A DNA stretch of 36,200 nt from Psammoneis japonica (Eukaryota), in assembly GCA_008632985.1 (NCBI GenBank), contig QPGO01000108.1, forward strand, positions 238,476 to 274,675. The letters are read 5' to 3'. Of the stretch, positions 5,682 through 29,420 are shown piece after piece. How positions within the stretch are numbered: position 1 is the first letter of the stretch; each line of letters begins with the position of its first letter. Made by a program: the position numbers and the translations under genes. The notes under the pieces are model-generated. The model was not told the DNA's origin and made no database searches. It saw nothing but the letters and a program-made list of their open reading frames with translations.

Positions 5682-6081
5682 GACATACAGCAACTCAACA
5701 AGAAAACAAAAACAACGACAACTGTTCGTGTTGTGCAGTTTTTGTTCATTCCAAAATCGAAAAAGGATTATTCGTGAGCGAATAATACATAACATTTTTG
5801 GAATTTCAATGTTATCCACGTTGACGATGAACGCGACATGATAACATTTCCAATATCAACATCCAAAGACGAATACAGTTAATGATCACAAATCTCCATC
5901 CGACCTCGCTCTGAAGCTTGAGCTCTGAGCATGCAACATTCAACCCTCGAGCCCCAAGTAAGAACCACAACAATGGTGTACCTCATGCTTTGATCTCACT
6001 TGCTCACCTCCGATAGCCCGACCAAGCTACCTAACGTAACAAGACATCACAGAACTCTTTATTGGTTTTGAGCTCTTCCCA

Positions 6082-6996
6082 ATGTCGAGAAGATCAAGTT
6101 CGCTCTCCGCAAGCAAATATGAAGAGACAATCGTTCCTCTTTTGGCTCGACGGTCTTGTCATTTGCCAGGCAACGGTTGGTGTGCCGATTGGGTTCAATA
6201 CATGCGGAACAACCACATCCTTTTCGGTATTTGTCTCCACCATCCACTCCATCCGTTGGAATGGTGGGAACGAATCATTGCACTTGTTGGATCTATTTCT
6301 TTCGGGTAAGTATATGTGAGCACAAACGTGTGAATTGAAAATGTGATGTGTAGTAATTCCTGAGTGCTGACTTGCCTTTTTAAAAATCGTGTTTTTCCCA
6401 GTCTGATCATGACAAATCTTGCCTACTTGTTTGACGGGTACGACGAAGAGCAAATGAGTGAATCCCTCATTCACGTGACTGATGACATGGTCCTTACCAA
6501 AGGAATGGTCTTCTTGTGGACGGTTGGAGGCGCCCTTCATTCTTGCTTTGATGTAATCGTGTGGAAAATAATGGCATGTGCTTGCTGTCACCCGGGGGGT
6601 ATATTTGGCTGTAGCCGTTGCGCCAACAAGTTTAAGGACTGCGGTAGCTACATGTTGATCCCTTTCATGTTGATCGTGGTGGGTATCGCGACATTTGTTG
6701 TGTTGAAGAGAGCATCCGAAAGTGGAGACGGCAGCAGCAATGGCGACGGGGAAGGAGGTGATTCTACATTTCTTTGGGATGATATTGACGGCTTCAAGTT
6801 TTTTTCGTTCCTCTCAAAATATTTTATCGAGCTGACACTGGCATGGCTCCTCTACTTCCCATCGGTCGGCACGATTGTATTTTCCGGTGTGCTTGGCTGT
6901 CTGCCAGGTCTTGGTGGGCGACCAAGAGACAAAAAAGTAGTGGAGGAAGAATTGGGATTATCATCTAGTTCGCATCCCTATTCAAGATGGGCTTAA
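6082..6996 (+). CDS. Uncharacterised multi-pass membrane protein; intron 6306-6401; true start probably further upstream (~5973)
   Basis: Exon 1 (NNHILFGICLHHPLHPLEWWERIIALVGSISFG) joins in frame via GTAAGT..CCCAG to exon 2, which has several hydrophobic helices. Confidence 0.7.
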
Positions 6997-7302
6997 CCCC
7001 GAATGTCACTCACAAAGCTTTCGGCACTCGAGTTTGCAAGAAAGTCGTTTGTGAAAAAGAGGTCTTATCCTCAGTTTATCAAACTTTCATGTCATCGAAT
7101 TGATTAGCTTCGAAGATACTTGTTATATTTTTTCTTTGTTGTCTCTATCACAATTTGCTTTCCCAATAAAAAGTCGGTTTGAGATGCGAGATAGAGGTGA
7201 AGGCATGAGCCAAGACGATGTCGCCCTGACAAAACTGAAGACTGTAGAGAAGCTGTAAAGAGACGTGAAGTAGAGTCGGCACAAAACGGAATATCTATGT
7301 GT

Positions 7303-8982
7303 TTATGAGCCCGGCGATCGGAAAATCTCCCTGTAAACATCATCTAACCGGTCACCGCACATGGATCTCAGTATAATCATCCACCATGTTCTTCTAAGAG
7401 CGCTCAAGACTTCCAATCCTGGATGAACCATGTGCTTTCCAATCGAATTTTCAATATTTATCTCTCGATTGTCGGGACGAGCCAATGTCATCCAGTACGC
7501 ATCCATTACTTGAATTGTGTCTTGGTATTCCTTCAAGACGTCAAACGCTATGCTGTTAAAGTGTGCCACCATGTTGGGTGACATGGAGAAGACTTGCTTA
7601 ATGTGTGGAGGCCAACTAAACCCGAAATTGCCGTATCGAAGCCAACCAGCTGTTGTTGACTGAAACACTTTTAATTCTGCCGGATAGTCCGCCATGTATT
7701 GAACAAGCCTCGTAAAGTGCTTTCGATACTCGACCGAGCACGACAGTTCTGTATCGCTTTGGTTCAAGACGTCAGTCCGAATAGCACTGTATTTTTCACT
7801 GCACAATTGTGCAACGTCGTGCAATCCAGTGTTGAAAATGACAAAACGGCGCTCGTCGGGAAAGTTCTCCTTAATGGCATCGAGTTCGGCGGTAACATTG
7901 CTCATCATAACGTGAATTCCTCCACTTGTAGAAATGCGAGTAGATGTAATATCAGGAGAGCCTTCTAGCAAGGACTGCTTGAATTGAATCTGCTGCAAAA
8001 GACTGACGGAATCTCCAACGAATATAACATGCACCGATTGATTCTTGTGATCTTTTCGGCACTGTCCAACGAGCTCGTGAAACTTGTCGGTACCGAGCAA
8101 GCTTGATTGTAGCATGGAGCAATCACTGGGCACATAGTCCATCATGATCCCCAAGGAATTCTTGCTTGACTGGTAGCCCCGAAGGGACACATTTTGGTTG
8201 GTGTTGTTGAAGCCGAGCTCATACCGCCGATTCGAAACCTTGTCCGTCACCACCCATCTCCTCTTGCCATAGGCGGAGTTACTGTCTGTCTCAACAAGTT
8301 GATCCAACAAGCACAGCTTGTGGCTGGTCATTTCACCAACTCTTGATACCTTTGAACTTTCTTGCACCGTGAGTTGAATTGGAAACCCAGAAACGAGGTA
8401 TCCTTCATACGCTGGGCTTTCTGGAACCATCGGATACGAATCGAAGTCAGGAGAATACGACGACACCAAAACCACTTCAACCGTGTAATTCCCAGGATCC
8501 ATTGGGAGAATAACGATGTTGTACGTTCCATCATGATTATCCTCGACCTGGCCGGTAATCACAGCGGGTCCGTATGCGCGAACGTAAAAGTGCGCACCGC
8601 CGTTTGTGCACTTTGCGTGATTGCAAACGATGACAAGCGTCCAAGGCTCGCCAACTTGACCCATCAATGGAGCTTTGTACATCTTGAAATTTCCAGCCAA
8701 GGTTGATTCGGGTCTGCTCCAACCCGTGTATCCAGGCAGTTCGCCGGGCACCAACGAAAGGGACGAATAATCGGCATTACCTCCTAGTGCTTCCTTGACG
8801 GTCGATCGCTCTGGGATACTGTACATGGTCGAAACCACATTTTGATAGACAGCAAACCCCGAGAGGAAGGTCAAAAGGACAACTAGCTTTTGCATCAACA
8901 TCCCTGCTTTTTTATGATGTGTCTTCAAGATTCTCGAGCCATTTTGAAAAAAGTGAGGGTGTGTTGATGTCGCAACAGACAC
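7303..8982 (-). CDS. Type II membrane protein with Ig/filamin-like repeat and SGNH/PC-esterase (NXPE-like) domain
   Basis: 559-aa ORF. N-terminal TM; GQVEDNHDGTYNIVILPMDPGNYTVEV (filamin-like); FVGDS, FNTGLHD and C-terminal HMVHP as SGNH-type blocks. Confidence 0.72.
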   Translation of the reverse strand: MSVATSTHPHFFQNGSRILKTHHKKAGMLMQKLVVLLTFLSGFAVYQNVVSTMYSIPERSTVKEALGGNADYSSLSLVPGELPGYTGWSRPESTLAGNFKMYKAPLMGQVGEPWTLVIVCNHAKCTNGGAHFYVRAYGPAVITGQVEDNHDGTYNIVILPMDPGNYTVEVVLVSSYSPDFDSYPMVPESPAYEGYLVSGFPIQLTVQESSKVSRVGEMTSHKLCLLDQLVETDSNSAYGKRRWVVTDKVSNRRYELGFNNTNQNVSLRGYQSSKNSLGIMMDYVPSDCSMLQSSLLGTDKFHELVGQCRKDHKNQSVHVIFVGDSVSLLQQIQFKQSLLEGSPDITSTRISTSGGIHVMMSNVTAELDAIKENFPDERRFVIFNTGLHDVAQLCSEKYSAIRTDVLNQSDTELSCSVEYRKHFTRLVQYMADYPAELKVFQSTTAGWLRYGNFGFSWPPHIKQVFSMSPNMVAHFNSIAFDVLKEYQDTIQVMDAYWMTLARPDNREINIENSIGKHMVHPGLEVLSALRRTWWMIILRSMCGDRLDDVYREIFRSPGS

Positions 8983-9164
8983 ATTTTACGTCTTTTTCAT
9001 CAACAAGAACAAAACATTCAATCGCTATATATACAATGATGAAAGCAAGGATAAAGTACTCATATTGCGTACATTTCTACGTACACATGTATCTGGTACA
9101 CAACCGTCCTGCACTCACCCTTTTCGCAGTGTTTTGCAGAAGATTTGTGAGATTGGCAAGCACC

Positions 9165-10001
9165 ATGGCGTCGTCAAAGGAGGCTTCGCCCTTGGCCGTC
9201 GTTGGCGAAGATGCAACCAAGTCGGAAAAAGTCCAATCAATGATTGCACCCTCTTTGTATCGTCTTACTGCCGGTTTACCGCGACGAGAACTCAAGCACA
9301 TTATAGAAGAAGCCAAGGCTTGCGAGGCTGCACTGGAAAAGGAGATTGAAGCGCTTGAAAGCGGCACCAACAAGGTGGCGGTTGACGTAATGTTGTCGAC
9401 TGAAATTACATCAGCTGATCGATATTATACCGTATCAGCATTGCTAGGACGCTTACGAGAGCCCGTCGCCACACCCCATCCGCCAAACTCATCACTCCCT
9501 CCAGAAATGCAGAAACAACGCATCACTACTAATGCCGCCTTGGAAGAAAAACAGCAGAAACTTTTGGATATGGAAAAGAATCCCCAATATCATGTCAAAC
9601 AAACAGCTGTAGCTCCTCTCTTGACATGTTGGAAAAAGATATCCTCTCATAGAACAGCCGCCGTGTTTCGGAAGCCGGTCAATGTCCGCGAGGCACCCGG
9701 CTACACGGACCGAATCAAGTTTCCTATTGACTTGTCTCTGATTCGTAAAATGATTACTGGTGGATTCATCAAGAGTTTTTCCGAATTGCATCAGAAAATT
9801 GGGCTCGTTTGTCACAATTGTGTCAAGTACAATGGGCGGGAGAGCGACTATGGGATGGTTGCGAGAGAATTTGAAGCGCATGCCGACGCATGCATATTAA
9901 TGGCTCTGGCGAGTACTAGTCGAACCACGACACCAACAGTCGAAGCACCAAAGCAGGCAAAAGCACCGATCAAGGCTACGAGCGATAAAAAAGCAAGCTA
10001 A
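9165..10001 (+). CDS. Bromodomain-containing protein
   Basis: HRTAAVFRKPVNVREAPGYTDRIKFPIDLSLIRK...NCVKYNGRESDY is a canonical bromodomain. ATG at 9165 lies within ORF 8919-10001. Confidence 0.9.
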   Translation: MASSKEASPLAVVGEDATKSEKVQSMIAPSLYRLTAGLPRRELKHIIEEAKACEAALEKEIEALESGTNKVAVDVMLSTEITSADRYYTVSALLGRLREPVATPHPPNSSLPPEMQKQRITTNAALEEKQQKLLDMEKNPQYHVKQTAVAPLLTCWKKISSHRTAAVFRKPVNVREAPGYTDRIKFPIDLSLIRKMITGGFIKSFSELHQKIGLVCHNCVKYNGRESDYGMVAREFEAHADACILMALASTSRTTTPTVEAPKQAKAPIKATSDKKAS

Positions 10002-10149
10002 CAGCACAAGCTAATCCTAACAAAATAATACGATTACTTGCTTTGCTAACTACTTTCGCGTCCATACGTCCATGGTAAAGTTCATTATCTTTGATCAAGT
10101 TCGGCCATTGCCAATTTGTCTATATTTACTGTACTGTACAAGCATCTAC

Positions 10150-11612
10150 TGCAATGCTTGTGCGTGCAGTCTTTATTTTACGGCGCAATAATTTTTTTCG
10201 CCATTTTCGTCGTGATCAGGAGAAAGGAGCACTGGCAGCGACAGCCATGCAGCTAGGGCCTGGTCGTCGTGGGTACAGCAGCAGACAAGCAAACAGCAAC
10301 CACTGACACAAATCATCAACAGTGGCCCCTGCATGCAGCCACAGCACTCCCATCTCTGTTGTCGCTCCTTGCGAGCCTTCCACTCCATGCTCCCTCGCCC
10401 CTCGCCTGCTTGCCCCATCACCAATGGCTTCCACCCAACCTCTTCCAGCTCACGCTGCAACCCAAGCTCCCCACCTTCTGATCTTGCCTGACTGCTCAAA
10501 CTCTGTGTCTTGACCCTGCTGCAGCGGCACTGCTGACCCGCGCAGAGACCACACTTTTTGTTGCCGCTCCCTTGGGCACAAAACAACCCCATCCAGTGCT
10601 GTCCATGGTGGTCTTTTGCCACTCTGCATGCAGACAATTGGCCTGTTGTCAGGTGTCTGCCAGGCCAACTGTTCAGCCACACACACAACAAACCTGCTGA
10701 CCTCATCCTGGTGCTGCATTCACCCCTCAAATGCCCCGGCCATGTTGGCGTTCAACTCACCCCAGCCACTGCCACACTGATCCTTCCACACCATGCAAGC
10801 ACAAAATGGAAGTTCAGCAGCAATCATGAAACACAGCTTGAATCTGCTGTCATGACCACCATGAGAGCCCTGAGCAGGCACTGGGCACACGCATCACCCC
10901 ACTTGCCTGTCGATCACTTGGGAGCACCTCCTGCTGCTGCTGGTGCTGCTTTGGACACTGCTTGCCATTTGGTGAAGACCAACTGTGCTCAACCCCCAGT
11001 CCCCCCTCAGGGATGCTCCCTGCTTCCACCACAGCCAGGTGGAAGATTGCTTTGTCAGCTGCCCAGACTCCGGGGGCCTTGGTGCTCGCCACACACCATC
11101 GCGCCACTCTCGTCCAGCGGAGCCTTCTTGTTCAGAGTCTCAGCCTTGCTGTGATGAAGTCTCTCACTGACCAGCTAGCCCGTTGCTCTAACGGACTCCA
11201 ATCACGCCTCACAACCCCTTCCCTCAAACCCTTGCCATCATTTCCCTCAGCCAGCAGCCACAGCCACATGATGTGACCCAGTGGTGCAGGCATCGGCAGG
11301 CAGCCCGCCAGCCAGCCAGGCAGGCAGCAGCAGCGTCTGTCCTTCACCGCGCAACAAAACCAACACAATCCAAATTCCAAATCGACAATCGACCATGGCG
11401 CACCATGATGCGTTCTGAAAAGCCAGCTGTTGCCATGGCACATTTTTACTGCTTCTTGTGCATCGTCCTTGGTGTGCGCAGCTCGCACTGTCTTGGGAAC
11501 AACTCAGTTGTCAAGTGCCCTCGAGTTGTTGCGGAACGCACGACTTTGACTCGGCGTGATGTTGCAGCGGCACCATCGCGCTGGGTAAAACGATGCAATC
11601 GTTGCACCAGGC
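10150..11612. mobile_element. Decayed TE-like island, TpA-depleted and CA/TG-rich; boundaries approximate
   Basis: Abrupt loss of TA dinucleotides; many overlapping C/H/Q/W-rich spurious ORFs; short hairpins near both edges. No family motif recognised. Confidence 0.5.
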
Positions 11613-11647
11613 TACAAAGTAGCGAGAATACAGCAATAGCAGCATCA

Positions 11648-12452
11648 ATGGTCAGAGGAGGCGGGATCTTCTCCGGGGAACTAATGGCTCAGAGTGAGTT
11701 TGCATTTATCGGACTACAAGGCGCTGTCCAGCTGGTGTTTCCTCTCTGGTACCTCAAAACAATAAAAAAGTCCACAGCTGTGAATGGAGAAAAGAAAGAC
11801 ATAGCCACATATTTTACAAGAGCACTTGGTTCTATCGAGCTTGGAGTTGCAATCACATTGTACCTGTCTATTATCAAGAAGAGTTCAACACGTCTCTCCA
11901 TCGGCTTTGGTCTCGTCCCTCGCGTGTTGTTCTTCTTGGCCAGCCTTGCCCCCGGTAAACTCAGATCTCTCGGGATGAAAAGCTCCTTCTTTACCTTCAA
12001 CACTGCAGTGACAACATGGGCTACTACTGCACTCCTTTTGAATATTGGAAATCCAGCAATGTCGGCACGTATCTTTTCCTGCATGGCAACGTTGAAGGCG
12101 TCCATTGTTGTCTTTCGTCCAAACAAGGCAAGCACAAAATACCTAGGATTGGACGTGAGCGGCAAAGGTGAGTGAGCGCTAAGTATTGTTCCATGGTGTT
12201 ATAATACCGAACTGGTATCTTTTCATGACACACTTTGCTTCGCTGCGCCATACAGAAATGGATAAAGTCAGATATCTGTGGCGGCTTCTCGGAACAGAGC
12301 TGCTGACGAGTGCAATCCTTATGGGACTCTTGGCCTTTAAAAAAGTATCAGTAACAAGGGCTGCATGGATAGCTGGAGCTGTGTTTCTCTTGCAGCAGTT
12401 GTCCATGTTTGCATTAGATGAAACGTGGCGGAGCGAGATTATATCGGATTGA
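11648..12452 (+). CDS. Uncharacterised multi-pass membrane protein; intron 12168-12255; N-terminus possibly cut off by the upstream island
   Basis: MVRGG start region, several TM-like helices, GTGAGT..TACAG intron joining in frame to exon 2 (EMDKVRYLWRLLG...). Confidence 0.65.
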
Positions 12453-12842
12453 GCGATACTCAGGCATACTATGTCGACGCAAAATGGCGTGGGTCGTCTA
12501 GATTTTAATGAGTTTTGATGCAAGAAAGTGGAACTGATCCAAAGATAGATGCATGTAGTTACAATTCTTCCCAGACACAAGTAAGCAGGGCCCCTACCTA
12601 CTTTAGATAGGGAACTATTTATTTATACCATATTGAACAGCAGGTGTCAGGTGTGCGTTGCGTTCTCAATTCTTTGTCCCTAGCTTTGGACTAGCATTGT
12701 TCTGATCCATGAACTGCAGCCTCACACACTACGGTATGAGAACACTCTAAGTCGAGCAGTACTGACTGGTGAGTCAAAGGTCAAAGGTGGAGCTCTTTCC
12801 CGACCCAAGCCGAAACTTCGACAGCAGGAACATGACAGATGA

Positions 12843-13044
12843 TCGTTGGTGAGACGTTAGGGCAGAAGGCAATGAGCCAACTGCCGAGCGTCTGACAGAC
12901 CGGGACCGCTGACGTCAATCTAGAATGTAGTAGAAGTCAGGGATCGCCGGATGGAGGGCCTCGGTTCCTGTCTCATTCCTTCCAGGAAACCGAGGTTGAG
13001 AGGATGATGGCGGCGATGATGCCGCTTGAATCCTTTTTTGCTTT
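12843..13044 (+). repeat. Split direct repeat A1
   Basis: Near-identical to 20881-21082 (offset 8038); all differences are transitions. Confidence 0.95.
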
Positions 13045-13053
13045 GTTTTTCCT

Positions 13054-13137
13054 TTTTCCTTTGGATCGAATCATGTGGCCTCACTTGGCTCTGCCTTTCT
13101 TTTCCTTTGGATCGAACCACATGGCCTCACTTGGCTC
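13054..13137 (+). repeat. Two 38-bp direct copies with 46-bp period in the element 5' region
   Basis: TTTTCCTTTGGATCGAA[TCATG/CCACA]TGGCCTCACTTGGCTC at 13054-13091 and 13100-13137. Confidence 0.9.
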
Positions 13138-13267
13138 AGGCCCGCTGGCCACCTGAATGTCGCCCTCTGGCTCCTCTAATTTTTCAACTTTACAGTTGGA
13201 TTTATTCATTCATTACGCCTGCCACTCGGCCTTTTCCATCACGCCTGCTGCTCGGCTGCATTTGAAC

Positions 13268-13846
13268 TCATTTTCGCCTGCTGCACCGGCATTGCACCCA
13301 TCCCAATCGCCTGCCACTCGGCTTCCCTCTACCTCCCTTCTTCAGCTTCGTCTCGGGCCCCTCTCCGTGTGTGTTCCTTGCTGCAATTGCCACCGCCCTG
13401 AACATTCTGGACAATTCGTCAATCTCGGAGCTTTCCGCTTCACTCTCTCCAACCATGCGCGCCGCAGCGACCACCAGCTGCTCCAATCCAGCAGCGTTCC
13501 CCGTTTCCTCACGAACGGGAGCACTCAGTGCCGGTGTCACAGCAACCAATCGACAGAAACGTTTTTCCGACAGTTTCGATCGCCCTTGGGTGTCTCCAGG
13601 CCTTTCATGGCGCACCCTCAAATAAAATGGGGTTGTCTTCGCCACCGTGCCACTCTGCCCACGGTGGCCACCGCCCATCATTTCCACATGGTCACCCACG
13701 AGCCACTCCCTGGTCACCACCATCTTGCCCATTCCCTGCAGCTGCTTCGTTCCTTCCTCACCAGCTGGAGAGTGAATGCAACAGCTGTTGGTTTTAGTTG
13801 CCACATCAACAACGGAAACTAACGGCCATTTCTTTCGAGTCATCAT
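13268..13846 (-). CDS. Antisense accessory ORF of the retrotransposon with a KOW-like motif
   Basis: WLVGDHVEMMGGGHRGQSGTVAKTTPFYLRVR fits the KOW pattern (GDxVxxxxGxxxGxxGxV), followed by a predicted helical segment. Confidence 0.45.
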   Translation of the reverse strand: MMTRKKWPLVSVVDVATKTNSCCIHSPAGEEGTKQLQGMGKMVVTREWLVGDHVEMMGGGHRGQSGTVAKTTPFYLRVRHERPGDTQGRSKLSEKRFCRLVAVTPALSAPVREETGNAAGLEQLVVAAARMVGESEAESSEIDELSRMFRAVAIAARNTHGEGPETKLKKGGRGKPSGRRLGWVQCRCSRRK

Positions 13847-14206
13847 GCCTCACATCACTTCCAGTGCTGTGCACACACATTTGCCGAATTGACAAATTCA
13901 ATTGACAACCACTTCAACGACACGTCTGCCACGCGTGCATGAACTCCAACCGCCACAATTTCCCTTTCCCATTGTCACAATTGCAACAGACAATGGACGC
14001 ATTGTCGTCTTCCATTGGTCGAGCGCAATTTCCTGAGCCACATCATCATTCCACAATGATGTGGTGCGCCACATGCCCCTCCACGCCAACTTTTCACTGA
14101 GGTGGCACTGGGAGTTTCAACCCTTTCTCTCAGTTGCACCCATTCGAAACACTCACAATTTCGACAACGTCATTTTTGTTCATTCCGTCTCAAGTTCTCC
14201 CCGTCG

Positions 14207-16495
14207 ATGATGCCAGCTTCTCCCAGCACCCTGGGTGACTTCGCCCATCAGATGGCCGGTGTGCCACCGGCTGTTTCCTCCAGCTTCAAGCATGACCCTG
14301 ATAAAATCGCCTGCCTTGCCACCGCCATGTCTCGCACCATCAGCCCCACCATCCGTTCGGCCATGGTCAATGATCCGTGCTCCACCATCCAAACCATCGC
14401 AGTGGTCGACAGTTTTTTACGCGCACTCACGCGCCCAACCCTCACTTCCTCGGATGCTTTCAATGAAGCCATCGCACTGGCGAGCCTTGGGAACACCTTT
14501 GACAGCATCGCCCCTGTCAAGGTTAAGGACATGCTGGATGAGTGTGTTGTCACCCTCGTTCCCAAACACATTGCGGGCTCCCTTGATCTCCCCATCAGTG
14601 ACAAGAACCCGGCGATGTTGGACGCGTCTCAGCCCGACGAGGACGGGAATGAAGTCCCACCTGGCCAAGAGCGCCTGGGGTTTGACGCTGCCTCTGCTGA
14701 CGACATGCCCAAGTTCATTTGCATTCCCCTCGCTTGCCCTTTGGCGCTGGGCGAGCACCTTTGGGTTGATGTCCCCATTGAGGATGACATTCCTGCTTCT
14801 GTCCCCGTTTCGGCTCCCTTTCATTCTTGGCACACTGCTGTCCGTTACCTGATCTTGCACAGTTCAGGTAAATCCCTCCAGGCATGCGATGATCTTTTCA
14901 AAGAGGCTGAGTTCGTCAACATGTTCCAAGACTGCCAGCTTGCCAAAGGTCCCTCTGTCGAGTGCACCGTGCTCACCCCATGCACGGTCCATTTCGACAA
15001 TGTGCGCTCCATCCTCCAGGAGTTGCGCACTGCAGCTGTTTTTCGTCTTGCAGAAGACAAGGACCCTGCATCCATTTTCACCGGAGGGCCACCAGTGGCT
15101 GGCACCCCAGACCTAGAACGCCTCATCCGAGCCACAGTTGAGTCAGTCACTCGCCACAATCTGGACAAACCTCAGAACACCCTTGCCGGTTCGGAACGCG
15201 ACCAACGCAAGGAGACAGATGACGTTATCCTTCGTTGCCGTCTGCTCTTCTTGTCCATTGTTGAGGCAGTGGACAGTGACGGTCACATCACAGACAACCT
15301 TGTCACTGCTCCCCCATTGCGTGAGGAATTTTTGTCTGTCATTCGCACTTCCAAAAGCACTCGTGCTTTGGCACTCGCCATTGAGAACATGATGCAGCAT
15401 GTCAAGGATCGTGCCACCTCAGACTTGCACATCGATGGTTGTGCAGATTTTGACATCAAGCTTTTGGATCTTCCCTTTGTCACGCGTCTGATTTCGCATG
15501 GATGGGCACCAGTCCCTCCCATTGTTGACCCAGACTCCATCAAGGACAAGCTTGGCATCCATCATTTCGCCAAGCCCAACCAATCGTGTGTCAAGTGCCT
15601 TGCGCGAATCGAGAACGGTCGCACTCTCCTTCGTCAAGAGCAGGTCGGTGAGGAGGACACTGAGAAAAACAAGAAAACCACAGACCTGTGCTTCACTGGC
15701 ATGATGGATTCCCATGAAATGGTTGACACTGCAGTGGGCAATCTGTGGATCTTTTTTACCTTTGCATCAGACGCCTTCCTCGTGACCAACCCGAAAAAAT
15801 TGCCGGCGGCATGGCCAGTCATTCAGGCCTTTTTGCGGGTCAAGAACAGCCCAGAAGGACGCGCTTGGGCAACTCGGCACCGGGCAACGCAGCATGTCTT
15901 CATCCATGTGATCCAATCTCTCCAGCACATCTTGTCACCTTTTGTCTCCCTTGGCAACATGCTGGCACATCGTAATGCTCTTGCTTCCGGTGTGCAGATC
16001 AGTCCGAAAGCGATTGCCGATGCCACGGCCCAGGCTGTGTTAGAGGTCACACGCCTCACGAATGTCATTTGGAGTGGAGACTTGGGCGAATGTCGCGACG
16101 AGCCACCCATCATGAGGCTCGTGGGCCCAGCATTGTCGTGGAGTGATGCATCCAATGCGTCCTCCAAAGGTTCCACAAACTCACCCGAAAAACCCAGGAG
16201 TGACAATGCTGCACGGAGGCGAACAAAGCCAAAGGTCTCGTGCGTTTCAACGGCTCTGGGAAACCGCCGATTGCAGATTCAATCATGGCACCTCACCCTG
16301 TCAAGAAAAAACCCGACATGATTTGTGGCAACTTCACTGCTGTTGGCTGCAGCTGCTGGTTTGGCGAACGTTGCAACTTCTCACACCCGACGTCTGTCGA
16401 GAAACTTCCGGGCGAGGCACGCGCAGCCTACAAGAAGTTCGTCGATGATCATGCTGAACTTGCTTGGGCCAACCAGCCTTCTTCTGGTGCGCAGC
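14207..16495 (+). pseudogene. Gag-like ORF1 of the Ngaro element with C-terminal CCCH zinc finger; frameshift near 16240
   Basis: Long ORF 14102-16321 lies upstream of pol. After a frame change it reads ICGNFTAVGCSCWFGERCNFSH (CCCH-like). The end is approximate. Confidence 0.7.
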
Positions 16496-16532
16496 TGTTG
16501 CGCTCTCGCCCAGTTGCGACACAATCTGACAC

Positions 16533-19391
16533 TTGGGCACCTGTTTTCTGTTCAAATTCGCAGATCCAGTCTACATTTGTCCCAACAACCTCGTCCCGCC
16601 GCTTGTTTCCATGCGAGATTATCCCGCCAACCTTTCGGTCACCGACTCCGCTTCAGACACCACCAGCACAACCTTCCCTGGTGACATGGACATCCGAGAG
16701 GTCGATGAAGACTGGGACCTGGATGAATTTGCTCTGACAGTGTCTGCAGTCACCGAAGGATCGCCACAGCCGATTGCAGAAGGGGTCACAGACAAGAAAG
16801 TTTCCAGTCCGTCCGATGTCAGGATTGACAGCACCCCCGCGGGCCGTCACTCTCAAGTTCAAGCGCGCGAGGTCTTTGTCAAGTCCCATCTTCCGTCCAA
16901 AATGCAGTGTCAACTCGACCAACCTTTCGGTGAGCCGTCCCTCAATCACTCGTTTTTTTCCGAAGTGAAACTTCGGCATGTCCTTTTGCCACTCTGTGGG
17001 TCAGGTGTTTTTTTGCGCAAGACTCGAGCGCACCTTGAAGTGGCCTGCAAGCCCGCACGATGGTCACCCAAGCTCATGCGAGACCACCAAGGTGTTGATT
17101 TTTCACGGATCCAAGACCCAATCCCGAAGGGTGTGGAAGTGGACTCCATGATGAAGGACCACAGCCGCATGTTTGCTGCCGCGGCTCTTCATTTCGATTT
17201 GGAAATCCCGGCTCTTATCTCATGCGTTGGCGGGATTCACGTTGGAGCCCATCGTGATGCTGATGCAATTTTGCACACCCTTTGAAATGGTGGAGTAGCC
17301 CACGAGCCAGTCGACGAACTGCAACGGACATGCAAAGTGGGGTGCCCTCGTCTCTGCCAGGCAGAAGCTGCAGAGGAGAACTTTCGTGAGTTCGTCAGGT
17401 GTGGCAACCACTCGTCCGTCAACGAGGTGCCACACAAGACCATGAAGGCTGTTGCGAAAGACATTCGCCGTGGGTGTGCCATCCCCTTTCACCCGGCTCT
17501 GCTTTGGTTCGTTCCGCACCTGCATCGGACGCCCCTTGGCATGGTCGACCTCCTCAAACCACACAAGTCGCCACAGAACATTTTTGACTCGTCCTTCTGT
17601 CCAAAACCTTGGTGCAACGCCATCAACGACTGGACAGACAAAGACAATGAACCGGAGCTCATTTTCGGCGGTTCTAAGATGCGTTTTCTTACATGGCTTT
17701 GGAACCTCCAAATTTCACACCCGACATCAGAAATCCACCCGGGCGATGACGATGTGGCTGGCGCATTTCGGCACTGCAAGTGCAACCCATTTGTTGTTGC
17801 CATGCACAGCTTCCTCATTTTCGGCTGCCTCGTGATGGCCACTGGCCAGACTTTCGGTGATGGACCTGGTCCGGGGAACTGGGAAGTTGTTGCGCGTTGT
17901 TGCCAGCAACATGCACAGTGCCTTTGGCATCGTCCAGACACGCTGGAATGCGCAATGCCGCATCACCCCAAAATCGTTTTCGAGCCGCCACCTCCCGATG
18001 CAGTCTTTGCTCCAGCAAACAAGAACGCGCTCAATCCCGGCGTTCTCCTTGCAGACGGGTCGCGGCGTGCTCCAACCTGCGACCATCATGTCGACGACAA
18101 CATGTGTGCGGACGTAGCCGAGCACATGCCACTCACTGTCTCGTCCAGTGTTTTGGCACTTTACACCGTCCTTGGCTTTCCGTCTGAAAAATGCTCAGAC
18201 TCTTTTTCGTGGGAGAAGTTCAAGAAGCATTTTGCGCATTGCAGAAAAATCATTGGGATTTGGGTTAACACTCGCGCCATGACGATCTCTTTGCCGGACT
18301 ACAAGTGTGAGCAGCTGGTGGCTGTCCTTGCGATTTGGCTTGCCCGCGATTCCTTTGCTCTCATTGAAGCAGCCGAACTCATGGGCTCACTTGTGGATGC
18401 CGCTCTCCTCTGCCGTTGGGGACCCATCACTTTTTTTGCTCTCCAGAACATGGTTCGTACCATCCTGGCCAGGCGATTTCACATGATCAAGGGTTGCCAC
18501 AATCGCACGAGGCAAGTGAAGGAATTCACGGACCAGATGCCACACACTCTTGAGCACAGAGCACTCTCCCTTGTTTCCCAAGATGTGGCCCGTCTGCTGT
18601 GGAGTGACGGAAAACCAGCAAATGTGACCACCCAGCTGCGTCAGGAGCTGTCATGGCTACATGATCATTTGTCTGACCCCACGAACCCGTGGGAGGTGAT
18701 GATTGGCCACCTTGTCCCACGCACACCAACCTTTGTGAGCACTGGAGACGCAAGTTTAGATGCCGGAGGAGCTCTCTCTGACAACCTGTGCCATTGGTTC
18801 GACGTCCTGTGGTCTGACAAGGTCAGGGGTGGCGCACGTTTGCCCAGCAGCCGAGACTACGTCCATGTCAATTGCCTGGAGTGTGTTGTGCAACTGCTGC
18901 AGCACGCCGCAGCTGTCGTCATGCTGGAGGAAGGCCTTTCGGAGGATCTGCTCGCCAAGCTCCCGGACTGCCAATTGCCCCCGCTTCCGATCCTTCTGTC
19001 TAGGACCGACAGCATGAGCTCTTGCAAATGGACAGCCAAAGTGTCTTCTACGTCGTTGCGTGGTCAGAACCTCCTGAAAATCCAAGGATCGTTGCTCTCA
19101 CGGTCTGATCTTGGACATCAGAGCGATTGGCTCCCCGGTCACAAAAACATCAACCCAGATCTCATTTCGTGCCCGGACCTCACCATTCCCCCTGCACTTT
19201 GGCATGCACAGATGTTCCGGAGAATTCCGAAGCTGCGATCCCATCGTTTTTTCCAGCCAAGTCACGAGCTCGTCTCGCCAATCTCGTTGCATCTCTTCAC
19301 AAAACAATGGCTGGCCCCCCCAAGTCTTCCAAGCAACTTGGGACGATTCACAGCCGGCGAATCCATTGCTTCATTTTCAGTTATGATCTGG
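16533..19391 (+). pseudogene. Reverse transcriptase / RNase H (pol) of the Ngaro element; in-frame TGA at 17283-17285
   Basis: RT motifs DDVAGAFRH, GQTFG..GPGNW, HHVDDN, KIIGIWVNT; RNase H motifs TGDASLDAGG, HVNCLE, RTDS, GHKNINPDLIS. ORFs 16533-17285 and 17337-19715 share a frame. The end is inferred. Confidence 0.88.
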
Positions 19392-20462
19392 GTCCATTGG
19401 ACGACTGGCTCCTCGTCAGGGCCTCCCAAGAGCGCAGGAACTGCCAAGTGGCACTCTACGCCACGCACCTCGCCACCGGCAGCACCTTGGTGTGTCGCAC
19501 TGTTCGTGGCAACACGATTGCAAAGCACCCACTGGACGTGGTGTCGTTCATCAAGCGCTTTCCCAGGTGGTCCCCCGGTGACCTGTGCAACAATGATCCA
19601 AGGCACTTCTTGGCTCATGACAAGGAATTTGCCCCGTGTGTCGCTCAAGTGCTTGTGGAATGCCGTCGCTGGGTTGCGAGTCCTTTGCCATCAACATGTG
19701 GTCATTCCTGGCTGACTTGGCCAGCAAACACGACGAAGACTCCATTTGGGCCGTGTGTCGCGACTGGTTCAGCATTGGCTCACACACGGTGGGTTTCGCC
19801 TCTCGGAATGGGCGCAACACAACGATCGCCCAGACCCACGCCACCCGCACATTGCTCCCAACGGAACAGTGTGTGCTTTCACCCTTGAGGGCACCCAGCT
19901 TTTTGACTCCAACTTGCACCCGCTTAGCTTTTCGGAAGCCCTTCGGCACACGGACCCGGATTCATTGCGTCTTGAGCTCACTTTCTCTTGGCAAAAGAAT
20001 GGGTCGCATGGCGAGCGACGCTTGTTCACCTTTGACAGTGCACGCTGCGACATGAGCCCCGTCACCCTGTTTCTTGACATCTTGCGACATTTTGACAGGC
20101 TTTTTGGCATGTCATCCAAGGATGCACTCCTGAGCTTGTGTCGTCGTGAGGATGGCACTGTGCTTTCCGTGACTGCAAGTGACATTTCCCACGTCATGCG
20201 GGCGGTTGCCAGTCGCAAGTTTAACCTGGATCCGCGCAGGAAATCTCATGCAAAGATCCTTTCCAAGTGGTCTTCGCACTCCATCCGTGTGGGTGCTTGC
20301 TGCATTCCATGCGCCATGGGCTTCTCGGAGGACCAAATCCAGTTTCTCCTGCGTTGGCGCTCGCGCGCTTTCGTCGCCTGCTTGTGCAATCTCACCATTC
20401 TGTCCAACAAGCAGAACCAGGTGATGGCAGACCTTCTTGGCATTGTGCCAAACACACTTTAA
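19330..20462 (+). pseudogene. Tyrosine recombinase of the Ngaro element (frameshifted; catalytic Tyr position reads Cys)
   Basis: GFRLSEW (R), WQKNG (K), SHSIRVGA (HxxR), LRWRSRAFVAC (RW..S....Y position). The N-terminal part lies in frames 19127-19888 and 19636-20055. Confidence 0.88.
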
Positions 20463-20684
20463 TCTTCAACCCTTTGCTTCCAATCTTTCTTTTCTACTTC
20501 GTGCATCCACTGCATCCATTCCAATGACAGCACAAACGGTTTTTGGTGCCACAAAATTTCGCCAATTTGCACCTTTTTCCCTTTTTCTTTTCTTTTTCTT
20601 TTTTTCCAGACGCCCACTCCCACTCCAAGATGGCACTCTCCTTTGCATTTCCCTTTGTCACATGCAACTGTGAGTGTTCGACCT

Positions 20685-20880
20685 GGGCAGGATTGTGCAC
20701 CTCAACTCGAGCGAATCCGCAACCCGGATTTCAAACTCTAGAGTGCACGTTTCCGCCACACGCTGCAGCTCACAACTGTCCCCCACTGGTTTGACCACGC
20801 GAGCGGCAACCAGTCACACATCTGTCTTGGACGGAGAGTTTGCTGGCGTCCAAGGTGGGACCAGGGAATCTGCTGGATTC
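20685..20880 (+). repeat. Split direct repeat B1
   Basis: 20685-20791 matches 21102-21208; 20791-20880 matches 22545-22634. Confidence 0.93.
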
Positions 20881-21082
20881 TCGTTGGTGAGACGCCAGGG
20901 CAGAAGGCAATGAGCCAACTGCCGAGCGTCTGACAGACCGGGGCCGCTGACGTCAATCTAGAATGCAGCAGAAGTCAGGGATCGCCGGATGGAGGGCCTC
21001 GGTTCCTGTCTCATTCCTTCCAGGAAACCGAGGTTGAGAGGATGATGGCAGCGATGACACCGCTTGAACCCTTTTTTGCTTT
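20881..21082 (+). repeat. Split direct repeat A2
   Basis: Copy of 12843-13044, directly abutting B1. Confidence 0.95.
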
Positions 21083-21101
21083 TCCCACCCACCCAATTCC
21101 C

Positions 21102-21211
21102 GGGCAGGATTGTGCACCTCCACTCGAGCGAATCCGCAACCCGGATTTCAAACTCTAGAATGCACGTTTCCGCCACACGCTGCAGTTTGCAACTGTCCCC
21201 TGCTAGTTCAA
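21102..21211 (+). repeat. Split direct repeat B2, 5' part
   Basis: Matches B1 at offset 417 up to the TCAA target-site copy. Confidence 0.92.
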
Positions 21212-22544
21212 GTGGGCGCACCACAGTTCTCGGCCCGTTCATTTTCTACGTGGCCTGGCACAACCCAAATCTGTGTAGATTCAGTGCATTTTGCCCTGCA
21301 GAACAGTTTTTGGGAGTGTTTTCTGGCTCGCGACGCAAAATGACATGCAAAACAACACGGACAATGGCGTTTCGCCGATTTCAAAAATGCGGTTGTTTCT
21401 GAGGTACTTTGTAGTGTACTCTCAATGGAATGTCTTACGTCACAGCATGAGGCATGTGACAAGCTCGAGAGTGCACAGGTTCATGTGGGTGGCTGATGGT
21501 GAAAATTCTCACTGAAGGTTCGCGTTGACAGCGTCGCTTCTGTTGCATCACGACCGACCTCATGCAGCACCATTCGTGCTGTGTGTTTCGTTGAGGCTTT
21601 ATACATTAACACCCGTTTGACTTACATGTGTTGTCTCTTTCTACATTGTTCTTTTGTTCTGCAGGGTCTCAGTCGTCGCAAGGTGTCCCAGAAACACTTT
21701 TCCTCGTCAAGAATGTCAATTCTGCAATGCGATGGCCGTGGCAATTCCAAAACGAGGCAAAGTCACAGACACAGCATCAGGCTGACTTCATAATGAACAC
21801 GGTGATTTGGGGCTATGGTGTCAAAAGCTGGACAAGCTCTCAAGAGCTCAGATCCGTCACAGTGCATTTTTGACAATGGTTCTCCCCGCCTCCACTTGGT
21901 GATGCGGAGTTTGATTCGGCAGACCAGTGCATCATGGCTGTTCTGAAGGTTTAGATTGCTTCTTTTGGCTGCAAGGTAGTTTGTGAGCTAGAAATGTGTG
22001 GCTTGCTTGCCCAATTTGTCAGCCAATGCAACAAACTTAGAGGGTGACAGCCGGGGCAGATGATCATTTTGTCAAGTCTAAAAAGCAGCTAAAGATTGTA
22101 TGCCAACAAGAAGAACTAGCTTTAAAATTTATCATGGGGGTGTGGACTTTATTTTGTTGGGGTATCACGTCTCCATTGTTGTTCTAGAGTGAACATTAAC
22201 TGGTGTTGTTACCGCCAACGTGCGAGTTCGCCTTGACAATCGGTTGCACTGTATTCTGAGATTTTGGAATAAAAAACAACTTTTGTTTACATTGCTCTAT
22301 TATAAGAGAAAGCTTATTAGCTTCCCCTGGCCCTTTTGGAGCAATCGGGTAAGTGAAAGAGGAGCTGCAGAAAGATGCGGACGACGCCATTTTGATGCGT
22401 TGTCGTCAGGTGGTGTCGTCGTGAGGTCGCGTGATGGAGTGCCATGCTTTCTGTTTTGTACTGCGTCTGTGTAGGAATGTACGTGATTGGCTCTCTGGTA
22501 GTTTCTACGTAAAAAGTGTACCAGGCGATCTCTGGACCGCCCTC
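21212..22544. mobile_element. Nested non-autonomous DNA transposon with TTAA target-site duplication (Kolobok- or piggyBac-like)
   Basis: Interrupts B2. Flanked by TCAA (21208-21211) and TTAA (22545-22548). Imperfect TIRs: GTGGGCGCACCACAGTTC..TTTTCTACGTGG versus reverse complement GAGGGCGGTCCAGAGATC..TTTTTACGTAG. Confidence 0.78.
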
Positions 22545-22634
22545 TTAACTACGCGAGCGGTAACTAGTCGCACATCTATCTTGGACGGAGAGTTTGCTGG
22601 CGTCCGAGGCGGGACCAGGGAATCCGCTGGATTC
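22545..22634 (+). repeat. Split direct repeat B2, 3' part (element right end)
   Basis: Matches 20791-20880 (offset 1754) with 9 transitions; similarity stops exactly at the B|A junction. Confidence 0.93.
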
Positions 22635-27949: not shown

Positions 27950-29420
27950 CTCTTGCGAGAATGGCGTCAAAATTTCTGCACCCTTCGGCCTTCACAACCA
28001 CCAATGACAGATGCCTTCTTGAGCTTGAGAAATCCAGGGTTTTGGTGGAGCCGGAACAGAATTTTTATGTTTTAGAACTTTTGCATTTTAGAATTTTTCC
28101 ACTTCTACCAATGCCCACCACTTCATTTGCTGTCACTGAAACCCAATTCGCTCATCTTCATTGTTTGAACAACATCAACAAGCTGTTGCAAAAGAAAATC
28201 CTGGGGACAGTGATTCCATCCCAATTGGTGCGAGGTTCTTCCAAGATGCACCCAGTGTTGTTCAACCAAAAAGCAATTGAGATTTGGTCAGGAGTGCTCA
28301 AGAGCTGTGAATGCTGTGTGCCCAAGTGTTTGCAGGACCCAGTTTTGCACATTTTTTCCTCTTTGCATGTCGTGGCTGCTTTGATTTGGTGGCAGCACAT
28401 CATGCTTTTGACTGCAATTTTCTGTTGGAAATGCAGGTGGGCTGACAGCAGGTTGACAAATGGTTGTCAGTTGCACCTGCACAAAGTGTCATCATTGCCT
28501 TCTTGTGTGCACTTTGTCACATCAATGCTCACAGAAGTTGAGAGAGCATCATCAGCTCCTGTTGACTTTGGAGACACAGCCAACAGATGTGCACAATTTC
28601 TGCCGAGGACCGCTGCTCTCTTGATGGAGGCACCTTTGGCAAGCAGCAAGAGTTCCATTCAGAGGTGATGGTGCCCCTGCCAGCAGTGATGGGTGACCAC
28701 ACTTGCCTGTGTCAAATCTAAGACTTGTCAGGGCTTACAATGCACAGAGGGTCACATTGCTGAGGCATGACCCGGGTGTGTGCGATGGTGTGAGCAAGGC
28801 TGCACACATGCCGCTTTGAAGAGCTTCTTGCTTGCTCCGGCCATTGAGACCATCAAGAGCAAGCAAATGTGACCACCACTCACACTGTCATGAGCCAGCA
28901 ATGCTTTCTTTGCAAGAAAGCTCAGCAACAAAAGCAGCAAAACAGCTCCCAAAACACATGTGGTGTGCACTGCACGCAGCTTTGTGAAAAACAAAGAGAG
29001 AACGAGGCCATCTCATTTTGGAAAATGAGACCTGGTGGGGATTCAAGCTGGTGGAAAGGTCAGAGGAATGACATGCTGCAAACAAGCATGATGGCATCAT
29101 GTTGGTCTGCTGTGGTGGAGAAACAGAAGAACATCAAGAAGCAAGACCACGCTGAGCCACAGGTGAGGACGAGGGAGATGATGATGGATGACGACGACCA
29201 CCCCCATCTCGAAAACCAGCAGCAGCAGCAGCAACAACAACAACAGCACTGAGTCAAACAATCAACACAAGAGCATGTGCAGCTCATTCAGAGACTCCAT
29301 TGTGATGATTAACTCCAACACTGGCAGCTTCCAATCACCAAGCTTAATTAACAACGGAAGGGACAGACCGGGTCGCTGGACAGACGAACCACGACTCGTT
29401 GCGCGCGCGATCCAAGATCC
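27950..29420. mobile_element. Decayed TE-like island, TpA-depleted; boundaries approximate
   Basis: Near absence of TA from ~28130 to 29300; C/H-rich, Y-poor spurious ORFs on both strands; located between intact genes. Confidence 0.5.
29217..29246 (+). repeat. (CAG)n(CAA)n microsatellite
   Basis: CAGx5 CAAx4 CAG. Confidence 0.9.

Follow-up and report, generated by a model that had tools for sequence, protein, structure and literature searches.

A dead tyrosine-recombinase retrotransposon of the diatom Psammoneis japonica has lost most of its TpA dinucleotides, pointing to TpA-directed hypermutation

The element and its genes

The window analysed in this work is a stretch of 36,200 nt from the diatom Psammoneis japonica (assembly GCA_008632985.1, contig QPGO01000108.1, positions 238,476-274,675, forward strand), in which a retroelement occupies positions 12843-21208 plus 22545-22634 (Table 1). 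It carries split direct repeats, the joined termini being present once more inside the element (A1 ... B1-A2 ... B2), and the identities between repeats are 95.5% (A1/A2), 91.8% (B1/B2) and 90% (junction/right end). On this layout and on the predicted RT/RNase H and Cre-like recombinase folds, the element is assigned to the DIRS order. It shares with the Ngaro/PAT-like DIRS-order retrotransposons the RT/RNase H, the tyrosine recombinase, the repeat layout and the fact that no integrase was found, but differs from them in that pol and recombinase are invisible to Pfam even in intact relatives, and in its RT motif C, HHVDD in 20/20 family members; given this invariance, a mutational change of a YVDD motif to HVDD was considered and rejected.

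Table 1. Features of the window, with positions counted from its first nucleotide
Feature	Position	Strand	TpA O/E	CpG O/E	Remarks
Second TA-free tract	~10230..11560		0.08	0.42	CpG-poor, TG/CA-rich
Main body, dead tyrosine-recombinase (DIRS-order, split-direct-repeat) retroelement	12843..21208	+			Repeat layout; predicted RT/RNase H and recombinase folds
Left terminal repeat A1	12843..13044	+			95.5% identity to internal A2 (20881-21082)
Hypermutated tract	13045..21208		0.107	0.78	CA O/E 1.52, TG O/E 1.38, G+C 54.4%
ORF1	14060..16321	+			753 codons between stops; a single Tyr among 739 aa; labelled gag in the preliminary description
pol (RT/RNase H), single frame	16530..19715	+			Homologue alignment; predicted fold of the family
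Tyrosine recombinase gene	19316..20462	+			Two frames, frameshift near 19700-19790
Internal repeat block	20682..21208	+			B1 20682-20791, junction copy 20791-20880, A2 20881-21082, B2 21099-21208
Nested insertion, high-copy repeat	21209..22544		0.47	0.77	1336 nt; read depth; joint 21208->22556
Right-terminal 90 nt	22545..22634	+			Copy of internal junction 20791-20880; severed from the body by the nested insertion
Third TA-free tract	~28100..29350		0.07	0.22	CpG-poor

Pfam searches with the five ORFs of the element and five intact pol homologues returned no family at E <= 0.01 (ORF1 included) and none for an integrase, and a profile search of PDB sequences with the pol alignment gave no hit at E <= 1, so that fold searches were needed for pol and the recombinase. 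The AlphaFold model of the closest intact pol homologue (mean pLDDT 75.6) matched the reverse transcriptases of foamy virus, CaMV, Ty3 and MLV, with a best E of 3e-7, and all the matches listed at E <= 0.001 were reverse transcriptases. For the ORF3 family, to which ORF3 of the window aligns with E-values of 3e-36 and 1e-16, the modelled structure (mean pLDDT 83.7) matched Cre, Tn1549 integrase, XerH and lambda integrase (best E 9e-7).

Several lesions were found in these genes. The pol frame contains an in-frame TGA at 17283-17285, opposite an Arg of the closest homologue, and reads through the ancestral stop after "...SVMI", now a Trp codon; the recombinase is divided, its N-terminal half being encoded in the frame of 19109-19888 and its C-terminal half in that of 19716-20462, with Cys (codon at 20379) in place of the invariant C-terminal Tyr. 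With Tyr replaced at conserved and catalytic positions, an in-frame stop, a lost stop codon and a frameshifted recombinase, this copy is dead. The sequence was present in a single sample, and no RNA data set was listed as containing the element; run X2, which has a GT..AG joint (12165->12254) in the gene next to it, hardly covers the element, a result that speaks neither for nor against its expression.

The nested repeat is the highest-copy sequence of the window, with a read depth of 2866-10999 against 55-63 for the single-copy flanks, and a contig of another copy of the element joins 21208 to 22556 without it. The element family has a few copies (summed depth 77-307 vs 55-63).

Extent of the TpA depletion

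The interior of the element (13045-21208) contains 45 TA, whereas 236 would be expected at the O/E of the flanks (Poisson P 2e-52), and its TpA O/E is 0.107 against 0.560. TA is the sole dinucleotide strongly lost (0.11 vs 0.56), AA (1.15 vs 1.19), AT and TT being unchanged or raised; CA rises from 1.18 in the flanks to 1.52, TG from 1.17 to 1.38, and G+C from 47.7% to 54.4%. In 1-kb bins, every TpA O/E between 13001 and 21000 falls within 0.07-0.16, compared with 0.36-0.77 outside the three depleted tracts, and in 100-nt bins the flanks average 3.82 TA (sd 2.26; 235 bins) and the interior 0.49, none of its 79 bins having more than 2. The triplets TAA and TAG together occur 2.8 times per kb in the element and 15.6 times per kb in the flanks.

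A preliminary description of this DNA had reported a near-erasure of TpA in 17281-20462, a scarcity of Tyr with Cys and His in its place, and a normal use of TA in the flanking genes. Our recount agrees exactly for the first (18 TA in 3182 nt) and gave 1 Tyr in 739 aa (14102-16321), 3 in 792 (17337-19715) and 0 in 238 (19746-20462), these three ORFs having 2.4-3.9% Cys and 3.4-5.0% His, while six flanking host ORFs have 1.7-4.5% Tyr and 0.8-2.8% Cys. The depletion had also been extended to the whole of 12843-22634, which holds for 13045-21208 and fails for the left 200 nt of the element (4 TA), for the nested insertion (TpA O/E 0.47) and for the right 90 nt (5 TA); depletion may have spread into the first ~200 nt of the nested insertion, where 21209-21408 has 3 TA. 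The loss is confined to the element, ending within about 200 nt of its ends and not entering host DNA: flank bins are normal, the adjoining non-coding 12543-12642 has 13 TA, and the boundaries of the tract are sharp.

The repeats of the element allow undepleted and depleted sequence to be compared. Three TA of A1 are CA in A2, B1 and B2 differ at two adjacent CA/TG pairs, and the right-terminal 90 nt retain 5/5 TA and four CG more than the internal junction copy, which has TG/CA at these sites; in this undepleted terminal sequence both TpA (O/E 1.18) and CpG (O/E 1.27) are kept. Outside the element, no retroelement genes were found in the two further TA-free tracts, either by ORF listing (10230-11560) or in 28100-29350, where a 240-aa frame has no Pfam family and one weak match (E 2e-4) among 1.84 billion representatives. 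Both tracts and the nested repeat lack similarity to anything else in the window.

TpA is converted to TpG or CpA on both strands

As no TA-intact copy from the same genome was found, ancestral states were taken from the repeats of the element itself and from relatives whose protein identity does not exceed 60%. Among 79 metagenomic relatives, fetched by three peptide patterns of which two contain Tyr, so that hypermutated relatives would be under-sampled, the TpA O/E of pol DNA is 0.43-0.93 in 79/79, against 0.11 in the window. At the loci of these relatives, 5/1462 1-kb windows have a TpA O/E <0.25, compared with 41/141 here; in pol, TA occurs 33.7 times per kb across 20 relatives and 5.65 times per kb in the window; and Tyr and Cys make up 2.5-4.5% and 0.9-2.1% of pol in 31 homologues but 0.4% and 4.0% in this copy. 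The possibility raised in the preliminary description, that the family itself is poor in TpA and Tyr, is thus answered in favour of hypermutation, the relatives being normal in both.

Conserved columns demonstrate the direction and the context of the change. In pol, 84 of 364 conserved columns are changed in the window, 18 fitting TpA>TpG/CpA, 8 fitting CpG>TpG/CpA, and only 2 being other A:T>G:C transitions. Pol has 11 columns in which >=60% of 20 homologues carry Tyr; in this copy Tyr remains at 2 of them, with Cys at 4, His at 4 and Phe at the last. In the recombinase, one of five conserved Tyr columns is still Tyr, two are Cys, and His and Phe occupy one each; one of the Tyr residues replaced by Cys is invariant in 25/25 homologues. 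Both strands are affected: in pol, the 4 Tyr>Cys replacements reflect A>G on the + strand and the 4 Tyr>His replacements T>C, and the strand bias expected of ADAR-type editing of dsRNA fixed by reverse transcription is absent, A>G equalling T>C on the coding strand. These counts (18 vs 2, Cys 4/His 4) uphold the earlier suggestion that A:T is converted to G:C at TpA on both strands of transposon DNA.

Several diverged copies from the same organism were recovered in run X1, with 601/673 kinds of difference being transitions, and short contigs of this run reproduce interior stretches with 0-1 differences. The comparison of copies covered 31 sites in 40 of 681 difference rows, among which 9 are adjacent CA<->TG pairs between copies, 6 have TA in the window and TG/CA in the other copy, and 0 the reverse. 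Since the copies differ mainly by CA<->TG pairs, each was hit independently.

The surviving TAs display a marked context. RTAY accounts for 1/45 of them, compared with 31% of TAs in relatives and flanks (Fisher P 1.7e-6); TAs in R-T-A-Y are virtually all gone, and those in Y-T-A-R survive best. The base preceding the informative Tyr codons is G,G,G,G,G,C for Tyr>Cys and A,C,G,T,G for Tyr>His (position 19736, a spurious fragment alignment whose codon is not Cys, was left out), and these 11 codons are too few to separate a purine at -2 from a pyrimidine at +1.

A slower CpG->TpG/CpA decay accompanies the loss of TpA, both dinucleotides being scarce in the interior as well as in the two further tracts; at 27 columns of conserved Arg, the CpG-type changes comprise 5 Arg>Cys and 3 Arg>Gln. 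This decay, absent from the preliminary description, is probably a separate methylation-linked process.

Origin of the depletion and comparison with known systems

The preliminary description knew of no characterised pathway of this kind. A 2026 preprint now documents the same signature experimentally, though not the enzyme, for viruses integrated in the genome of Bigelowiella natans, which undergo TpA->TpG/CpA hypermutation (Mettrop et al., bioRxiv 10.64898/2026.01.13.699255, 2026). According to its main text, 230/231 mutations in two integrated viral regions of mutation-accumulation lines were A>G or T>C, all such GC-biased mutations falling on TpA at ~6e-7 per site per generation, with a measured ongoing rate elevation of ~1000-fold in some lineages; the main target is single-copy, the NCLDV insert has a TpA O/E of 0.45, and TpA-depleted CDS are enriched in reverse-transcriptase and DDE domains (Mettrop et al., 2026). 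Only this preprint matched in our literature search, which found no diatom report of TpA hypermutation; the word diatom occurs 0 times in its main text.

We consider it fairly likely that the window holds a dead tyrosine-recombinase retrotransposon that underwent post-integration, TpA-specific host hypermutation, probably by a DNA adenine deaminase. Such a process, active after the copies of the family separated and most likely once they were integrated, would have acted specifically on TpA, turning A:T into G:C on either DNA strand and removing about 83% of the TAs of the element as TA>TG or TA>CA; CpG>TpG/CpA decay of the kind typical for 5mC deamination would have proceeded more slowly in the same domain, so that both would pile up TG/CA. 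TAY (Tyr) codons would thereby turn to Cys or His, the invariant C-terminal Tyr of the recombinase included, and because TAA/TAG stops are erased, long ORFs would persist and look intact though their proteins are ruined. Chemically, the likeliest route would be that an enzyme deaminates adenine in DNA to hypoxanthine, which is then read as G; this deaminase would need T at -1 and be directed to silenced foreign DNA, in a process of the same kind as that measured in B. natans. The data demonstrate the direction and context of the change, its occurrence on both strands, its restriction to the element and separate hits in different copies; we infer action on integrated DNA, the deaminase, its targeting signal and a role in defence.

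Editing before integration, in which RNA and/or single-stranded cDNA would be deaminated at UpA/TpA in each cycle in an ADAR- or APOBEC-like mode, but on adenine, so that insertions arrive hypermutated, appears improbable to us. It suits a retroelement, which has RNA and single-stranded cDNA stages (DIRS-1 amplification via linear single-stranded cDNA has been reported; PMC7192593), and it agrees with all copies seen being TA-poor with independent TG or CA outcomes; B1 and B2 could also both sit in one transcript. However, one edited intermediate predicts strand bias, and the changes are equal on both strands (4 Tyr>Cys, 4 Tyr>His); TAs missing from the internal copies are still present in the terminal ones, which are presumed to be regenerated from them; the two further TA-free tracts lack retroelement genes; and the process in B. 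natans acts on integrated DNA in real time (Mettrop et al., 2026). The coupling of TpA loss to CpG loss, a DNA-level process, argues in the same direction. That coupling within shared domains is what error-prone patch repair within silenced or methylated chromatin would explain, an option also named in the preliminary description, by which T:G mismatches from 5mC deamination would recruit mismatch repair and a polymerase-eta-like enzyme and yield A>G at TA. Phase II of antibody somatic hypermutation proceeds by polymerase-eta-type mis-insertion opposite T, and the polymerase-eta hotspot is WA (AA and TA). We rate this explanation as less probable still, as AA is not depleted here and A:T>G:C changes outside TpA number 2 vs 18; furthermore, two relatives in other hosts (L053 and L056) have a CpG O/E of 0.08-0.10 yet a normal TpA of 0.64-0.72, and G:C>A:T made up 1/211 in the main region of B. 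natans (Mettrop et al., 2026).

A weaker genome-wide pressure against TpA may exist, the flank TpA O/E of only 0.56 being rather low, and there are three TA-free tracts in 36 kb. A neutral bias by which TpA is hypermutable everywhere and kept in genes by selection, the element representing the neutral equilibrium, is nevertheless very unlikely: the non-coding DNA adjoining the element is normal or high in TA, and, at the same locus, TAs survive in the nested repeat as well as in the terminal 90 nt, with sharp boundaries. Least credible is the absence of any mutation process, the family being intrinsically TA-poor, the TA-rich terminal pieces being RIP-mutated (CpA>TpA), or the tract being an assembly or base-calling artefact. 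Suppression of UpA and CpG is known in RNA viruses and mRNAs (PMC3829696), but the replaced Tyr residues, the gained and lost stops and the frameshift mark a dead rather than an adapted element, 79/79 relatives are normal in TpA, and the short contigs of run X1 repeat the interior almost without difference; for this copy, such explanations are refuted.

Regarding the preferred account of post-integration hypermutation, a wider reading is possible though doubtful: TpA-directed adenine deamination of silenced foreign DNA could be an old, widespread defence of SAR algae, acting on diatom retrotransposons within the cytosine-methylation domain and with R-T-A-Y preference, through an ADAT2/TadA-like DNA deaminase that would have inherited its T(-1) need from the tRNA anticodon loop. 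If it serves as a defence, enzymatic A:T>G:C hypermutation occurring naturally in mobile DNA would form an adenine-based parallel to RIP and APOBEC; such hypermutation has so far rested on one preprint on one alga (Mettrop et al., 2026). The window contributes a second, distantly related host and a different target class, a near-saturated end state in which Tyr codons and TAA/TAG stops vanish while dead elements keep deceptively long ORFs, and a stricter sequence preference (RTAY far above YTAR) that a candidate enzyme would have to reproduce. For annotation, long open frames in TA-poor tracts are no evidence for active genes, and a natural TpA-specific DNA adenine deaminase, if true, would be of interest to the base-editing field.

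Among known systems, fungal RIP is likewise a dinucleotide-specific transition hypermutation of both strands that inactivates genomic transposon copies, but it proceeds by C>T, for the most part CpA>TpA, and generates TA and stop codons (Mettrop et al., 2026), whereas the window loses both, the direction being fixed by homologues. RIP targets duplicated sequence, a dependence of which there is no clear sign here: the wording "repeat-targeted" of the preliminary description finds no support, as the nested highest-copy repeat keeps a TpA O/E of 0.47 and the main target in B. natans is single-copy. The undepleted nested repeat fits a late insertion, yet shows that the process does not hit every repeat. 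Deamination of 5-methylcytosine in methylated transposons accounts for the secondary CpG>TpG/CpA component of the window and cannot remove TpA, and relatives elsewhere combine strong CpG decay with normal TpA. With ADAR and ADAT (TadA) the common trait is an A read as G after deamination, but these are RNA enzymes. The ADAT/TadA substrate is the tRNA anticodon loop, U33-A34, so that U at -1 is built in, and ADARs are, to our knowledge, confined to animals. A preference of ADARs for U/T at -1 has also been described (Mettrop et al., 2026).

The closest system is that of B. natans, as presented in the main text of the preprint. It is a chlorarachniophyte with integrated viruses, while the window is from a diatom and contains a tyrosine-recombinase retrotransposon; depletion is near saturation here (O/E 0.11 vs 0.45 in the NCLDV insert); CpG>TpG/CpA decay runs alongside in the window (8 CpG-type changes), whereas G:C>A:T is not elevated in B. 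natans; and the RTAY>YTAR hierarchy is a feature of the window, absent from that text as far as covered. Common to both are TpA>TpG and TpA>CpA on both strands with almost no other A:T>G:C change, restriction to foreign inserts, and long-term TpA depletion with CpA and TpG gain, reverse-transcriptase CDS being among those depleted. As in B. natans, the changes in the window fall on TpA, give both TpG and CpA, and are confined to mobile DNA.

Decay and TpA depletion of a DIRS-order retrotransposon

The TA and tyrosine counts of the preliminary description were reproduced exactly, with 18 TA in 17281-20462 and 1, 3 and 0 Tyr in the ORFs of 739, 792 and 238 aa, which contain 2.4-3.9% Cys and 3.4-5.0% His; the six host ORFs in the flanks contain 1.7-4.5% Tyr. 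TpA observed/expected (O/E) ratios were 0.07-0.16 in all 1-kb bins from 13001 to 21000, and the interior of the element (13045-21208) holds 45 TA where the flank O/E would predict 236 (0.107 vs 0.560; P 2e-52), or 0.49 TA per 100 nt (79 bins) versus 3.82 in the flanks (235 bins). TA is the sole strongly lost dinucleotide in the interior, where CA and TG are both raised (O/E 1.52 vs 1.18 and 1.38 vs 1.17, respectively), CpG is moderately lowered (0.78 vs 0.97 in the flanks) and G+C amounts to 54.4% (47.7% in the flanks).

Coordinates and properties of the features located in the window
Feature	Coordinates	Properties	Basis
A1	12843-13044	Split direct repeat, pairs with A2	Repeat comparison
A2	20881-21082	Split direct repeat, pairs with A1	Repeat comparison
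B1	20682-20791	Split direct repeat, pairs with B2	Repeat comparison
B2	21099-21208	Split direct repeat, pairs with B1	Repeat comparison
Internal junction copy	20791-20880	Duplicate of right end 22545-22634	Repeat comparison
pol	16530-19715	Single frame	
Nested insert	21209-22544	1336 nt, between B2 and right end	
Second TA-free tract	10230-11560	5 TA; TpA O/E 0.08, CpG O/E 0.42	
Third TA-free tract	28100-29350	6 TA; TpA O/E 0.07, CpG O/E 0.22	

We class the element as a retroelement of the DIRS order, with split direct repeats. The homologues of pol (n=31, best identity 60%) had no match in Pfam or by PDB sequence search, and in an AlphaFold model the fold of the closest one resembles reverse transcriptases of the retroviral and LTR types (E 3e-7). 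For the third gene, whose relatives form a family of ~350-aa proteins (358 matches), the family model resembles Cre and further tyrosine recombinases (E 9e-7). This copy is dead, because pol carries an in-frame TGA (17283-17285, opposite an Arg of the closest homologue) and its stop is now Trp, with the frame reading through, while the recombinase gene is divided over two frames and its invariant C-terminal Tyr has become Cys. The retroelement family is large in environmental eukaryote DNA (protein homologues P0001-P0031 and P0153-P0272; metagenomic loci L001-L079), comprising at least 275 tblastn-confirmed stretches and the 358 recombinase homologues; Pfam detects neither its RT/RNase H nor its recombinase, and its RT motif C is HHVDD, not YxDD.

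By Pfam, the genes in the flanks are of eukaryotic type, encoding topoisomerase IB as well as proteins with a bromodomain and with a senescence domain. With few exceptions, the named close relatives of this topoisomerase come from diatoms (Fragilaria, 77%; Seminavis, Nitzschia, Fistulifera and Cyclotella, 72-75%), the best match being a transcript at 80%; therefore, the host is a diatom and not Bigelowiella.

Direction and sequence context of the changes

The pol homologues display a normal Tyr content (2.5-4.5%) and low Cys. Of 364 columns that 60% or more of 20 homologues share, 84 are altered in the window. Each was explained by the simplest single change, and TpA or CpG was given preference where several were equally simple: under this rule 13 are TpA>TpG, 5 TpA>CpA and 8 CpG>TpG/CpA, accompanied by 2 other A:T>G:C transitions and 10 other G:C>A:T transitions, as well as by 31 transversions and 15 multi-step changes, both of which represent ordinary divergence at 60% identity. 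Only 2 of the 11 conserved Tyr are kept (4 are Cys, 4 His and 1 Phe), as are 16 of the 27 conserved Arg (5 are Cys and 3 Gln). In agreement with the loss of 9 of 11 conserved Tyr, pol contains 5.65 TA per kb versus 33.7 in 20 relatives, i.e., ~83% fewer. All 79 metagenomic relatives, retrieved with three peptide patterns of which two contain Tyr, have a pol TpA O/E of 0.43-0.93, versus 0.11 here; values below 0.25 were observed in 5 of 1462 1-kb windows at the relatives' loci (none below 0.21) and in 41 of 141 in the present window. The family is thus neither TpA- nor Tyr-poor, so that the refuting condition set by the preliminary description does not hold, and its mutational reading, namely TpA>TpG/CpA change within the element, is borne out by the conserved columns, the Tyr to Cys/His replacements and the relatives' TpA.

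Both strands are affected alike: Tyr>Cys and Tyr>His changes, respectively A>G and T>C on the coding strand, number four each. The 45 TAs that survive in the interior are a non-random set: a single one is in RTAY context, which makes up 31% of TAs in the flanks and likewise in the pol of the relatives (Fisher P 1.7e-6), 17 are in YTAR context (12-18% in these references), and none lies in an ATAT, ATAC/GTAT or ATAG/CTAT context. In the other two TA-free tracts, a 5' pyrimidine is present at 9 of the 10 survivors listed. Since RTAY is self-complementary, the rule on the edited strand could be a purine at -2 or a pyrimidine at +1; the informative Tyr codons, too few to decide, lean to the former.

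Copies, neighbouring tracts and level of action

Sequencing run X1 contains several diverged copies of the element (1425 contigs, summed depth 77-307), and 601 of 673 kinds of difference are transitions. At the 31 sites compared, drawn from 40 of the 681 difference rows of this run, adjacent CA<->TG pairs were found at 9; the window has TG/CA where the other copy has CG at 9 (the opposite at 3), TA where the other copy has TG/CA at 6, and TG/CA where the other copy has TA at none, 4 sites remaining. Each CA<->TG pair goes back to a single YpR of the ancestor, in most cases TA to judge from the loss rates, that was resolved differently per copy; therefore, the copies received independent hits and do not descend from a single master that had been mutated. 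Two such pairs also separate B1 from B2 within the element. The terminal pieces are much less mutated than their internal twins, as A1 keeps 3 TA at positions where A2 has CA, and the right-terminal 90 nt have TA (5) and CG (4) at sites that are TG/CA in the internal copy.

The two further TA-free tracts are complex sequence with few CG and TG/CA O/E of 1.7-2.0, and resemble older outcomes of the TpA and CpG losses. Their lack of TAA and TAG leaves several reading frames open across these tracts, a possible trap for gene prediction. The tract at 10230-11560 adjoins the 5' end of gene 11273-12668, in which an 88-nt GT..AG interval (12166-12253), absent from a contig of run X2, is probably an intron; the skipped interval suggests that X2 is a transcriptome. 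Elsewhere in the window, neighbouring minus-strand ORFs (31274-35343, 70-nt overlap) encode a DUF1800 protein (936 aa, E 3e-43) and a 442-aa partner whose match to DUF1501 is weak and does not reach the Pfam cut-off (E 0.008). Such neighbours typically occur in bacterial operons; in a diatom genome, the pair was possibly acquired horizontally.

In the right-terminal 90 nt, TpA and CpG are both preserved (O/E 1.18 and 1.27), whereas both are lost in the interior. Chiefly from this co-variation, since CpG decay occurs in DNA that is integrated and methylated, we infer that integrated DNA is likewise the substrate of the TpA process, and that both operate in a single chromatin domain. The most likely mechanism would be that a deaminase requiring T at -1 acts on adenine in integrated DNA that has been silenced. 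Editing of RNA or cDNA before integration seems unlikely beside the shared fate of TpA and CpG, and error-prone repair within methylated chromatin is a distinctly improbable source of the changes. Loci L053 and L056, from other hosts, present classical methylation decay (CpG O/E 0.08-0.10) with normal TpA (0.64-0.72); therefore, TpA loss is no by-product of CpG decay. The nested insert has a read depth of 2866-10999, versus 55-63 in single-copy flanks (~50-180x single copy), and a contig from another copy joins 21208 to 22556; it is therefore a high-copy repeat, with nothing similar elsewhere in the window. Its CpG O/E is 0.31-0.35 at 21751-22200. Its TpA is close to flank level, for which reason the earlier qualification of the process as repeat-targeted is not supported. 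A neutral bias acting genome-wide is very improbable as the origin of the TpA deficit.

Comparison with Bigelowiella natans

The phenomenon, initially regarded as uncharacterised, is now described, unlike its pathway, in the main text of a bioRxiv preprint on mutation-accumulation lines of Bigelowiella natans (10.64898/2026.01.13.699255). According to that text, two integrated viral regions received 231 of the 302 nuclear single-nucleotide mutations, and A>G or T>C accounted for 230 of the 231 mutations there; its authors state that every such GC-biased mutation there was on TpA; the rate was ~6e-7 per site per generation, in some lines only. The same source reports 324 TpA-depleted CDS enriched for reverse-transcriptase and DDE domains, and proposes an ADAT2-like protein as a candidate. 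The word 'diatom' is absent from its main text, and beyond it we found no further report of TpA hypermutation in the literature, for diatoms or other organisms. The B. natans targets are integrated viruses, transposable elements being named just as possible further ones, whereas the target here is a retrotransposon; in the preprint's Results and Discussion we found no wider sequence context (10.64898/2026.01.13.699255). Our results extend the B. natans phenomenon to a second lineage and to a new class of target, and add to it an end state close to saturation, a coupling with CpG decay, and the RTAY preference.
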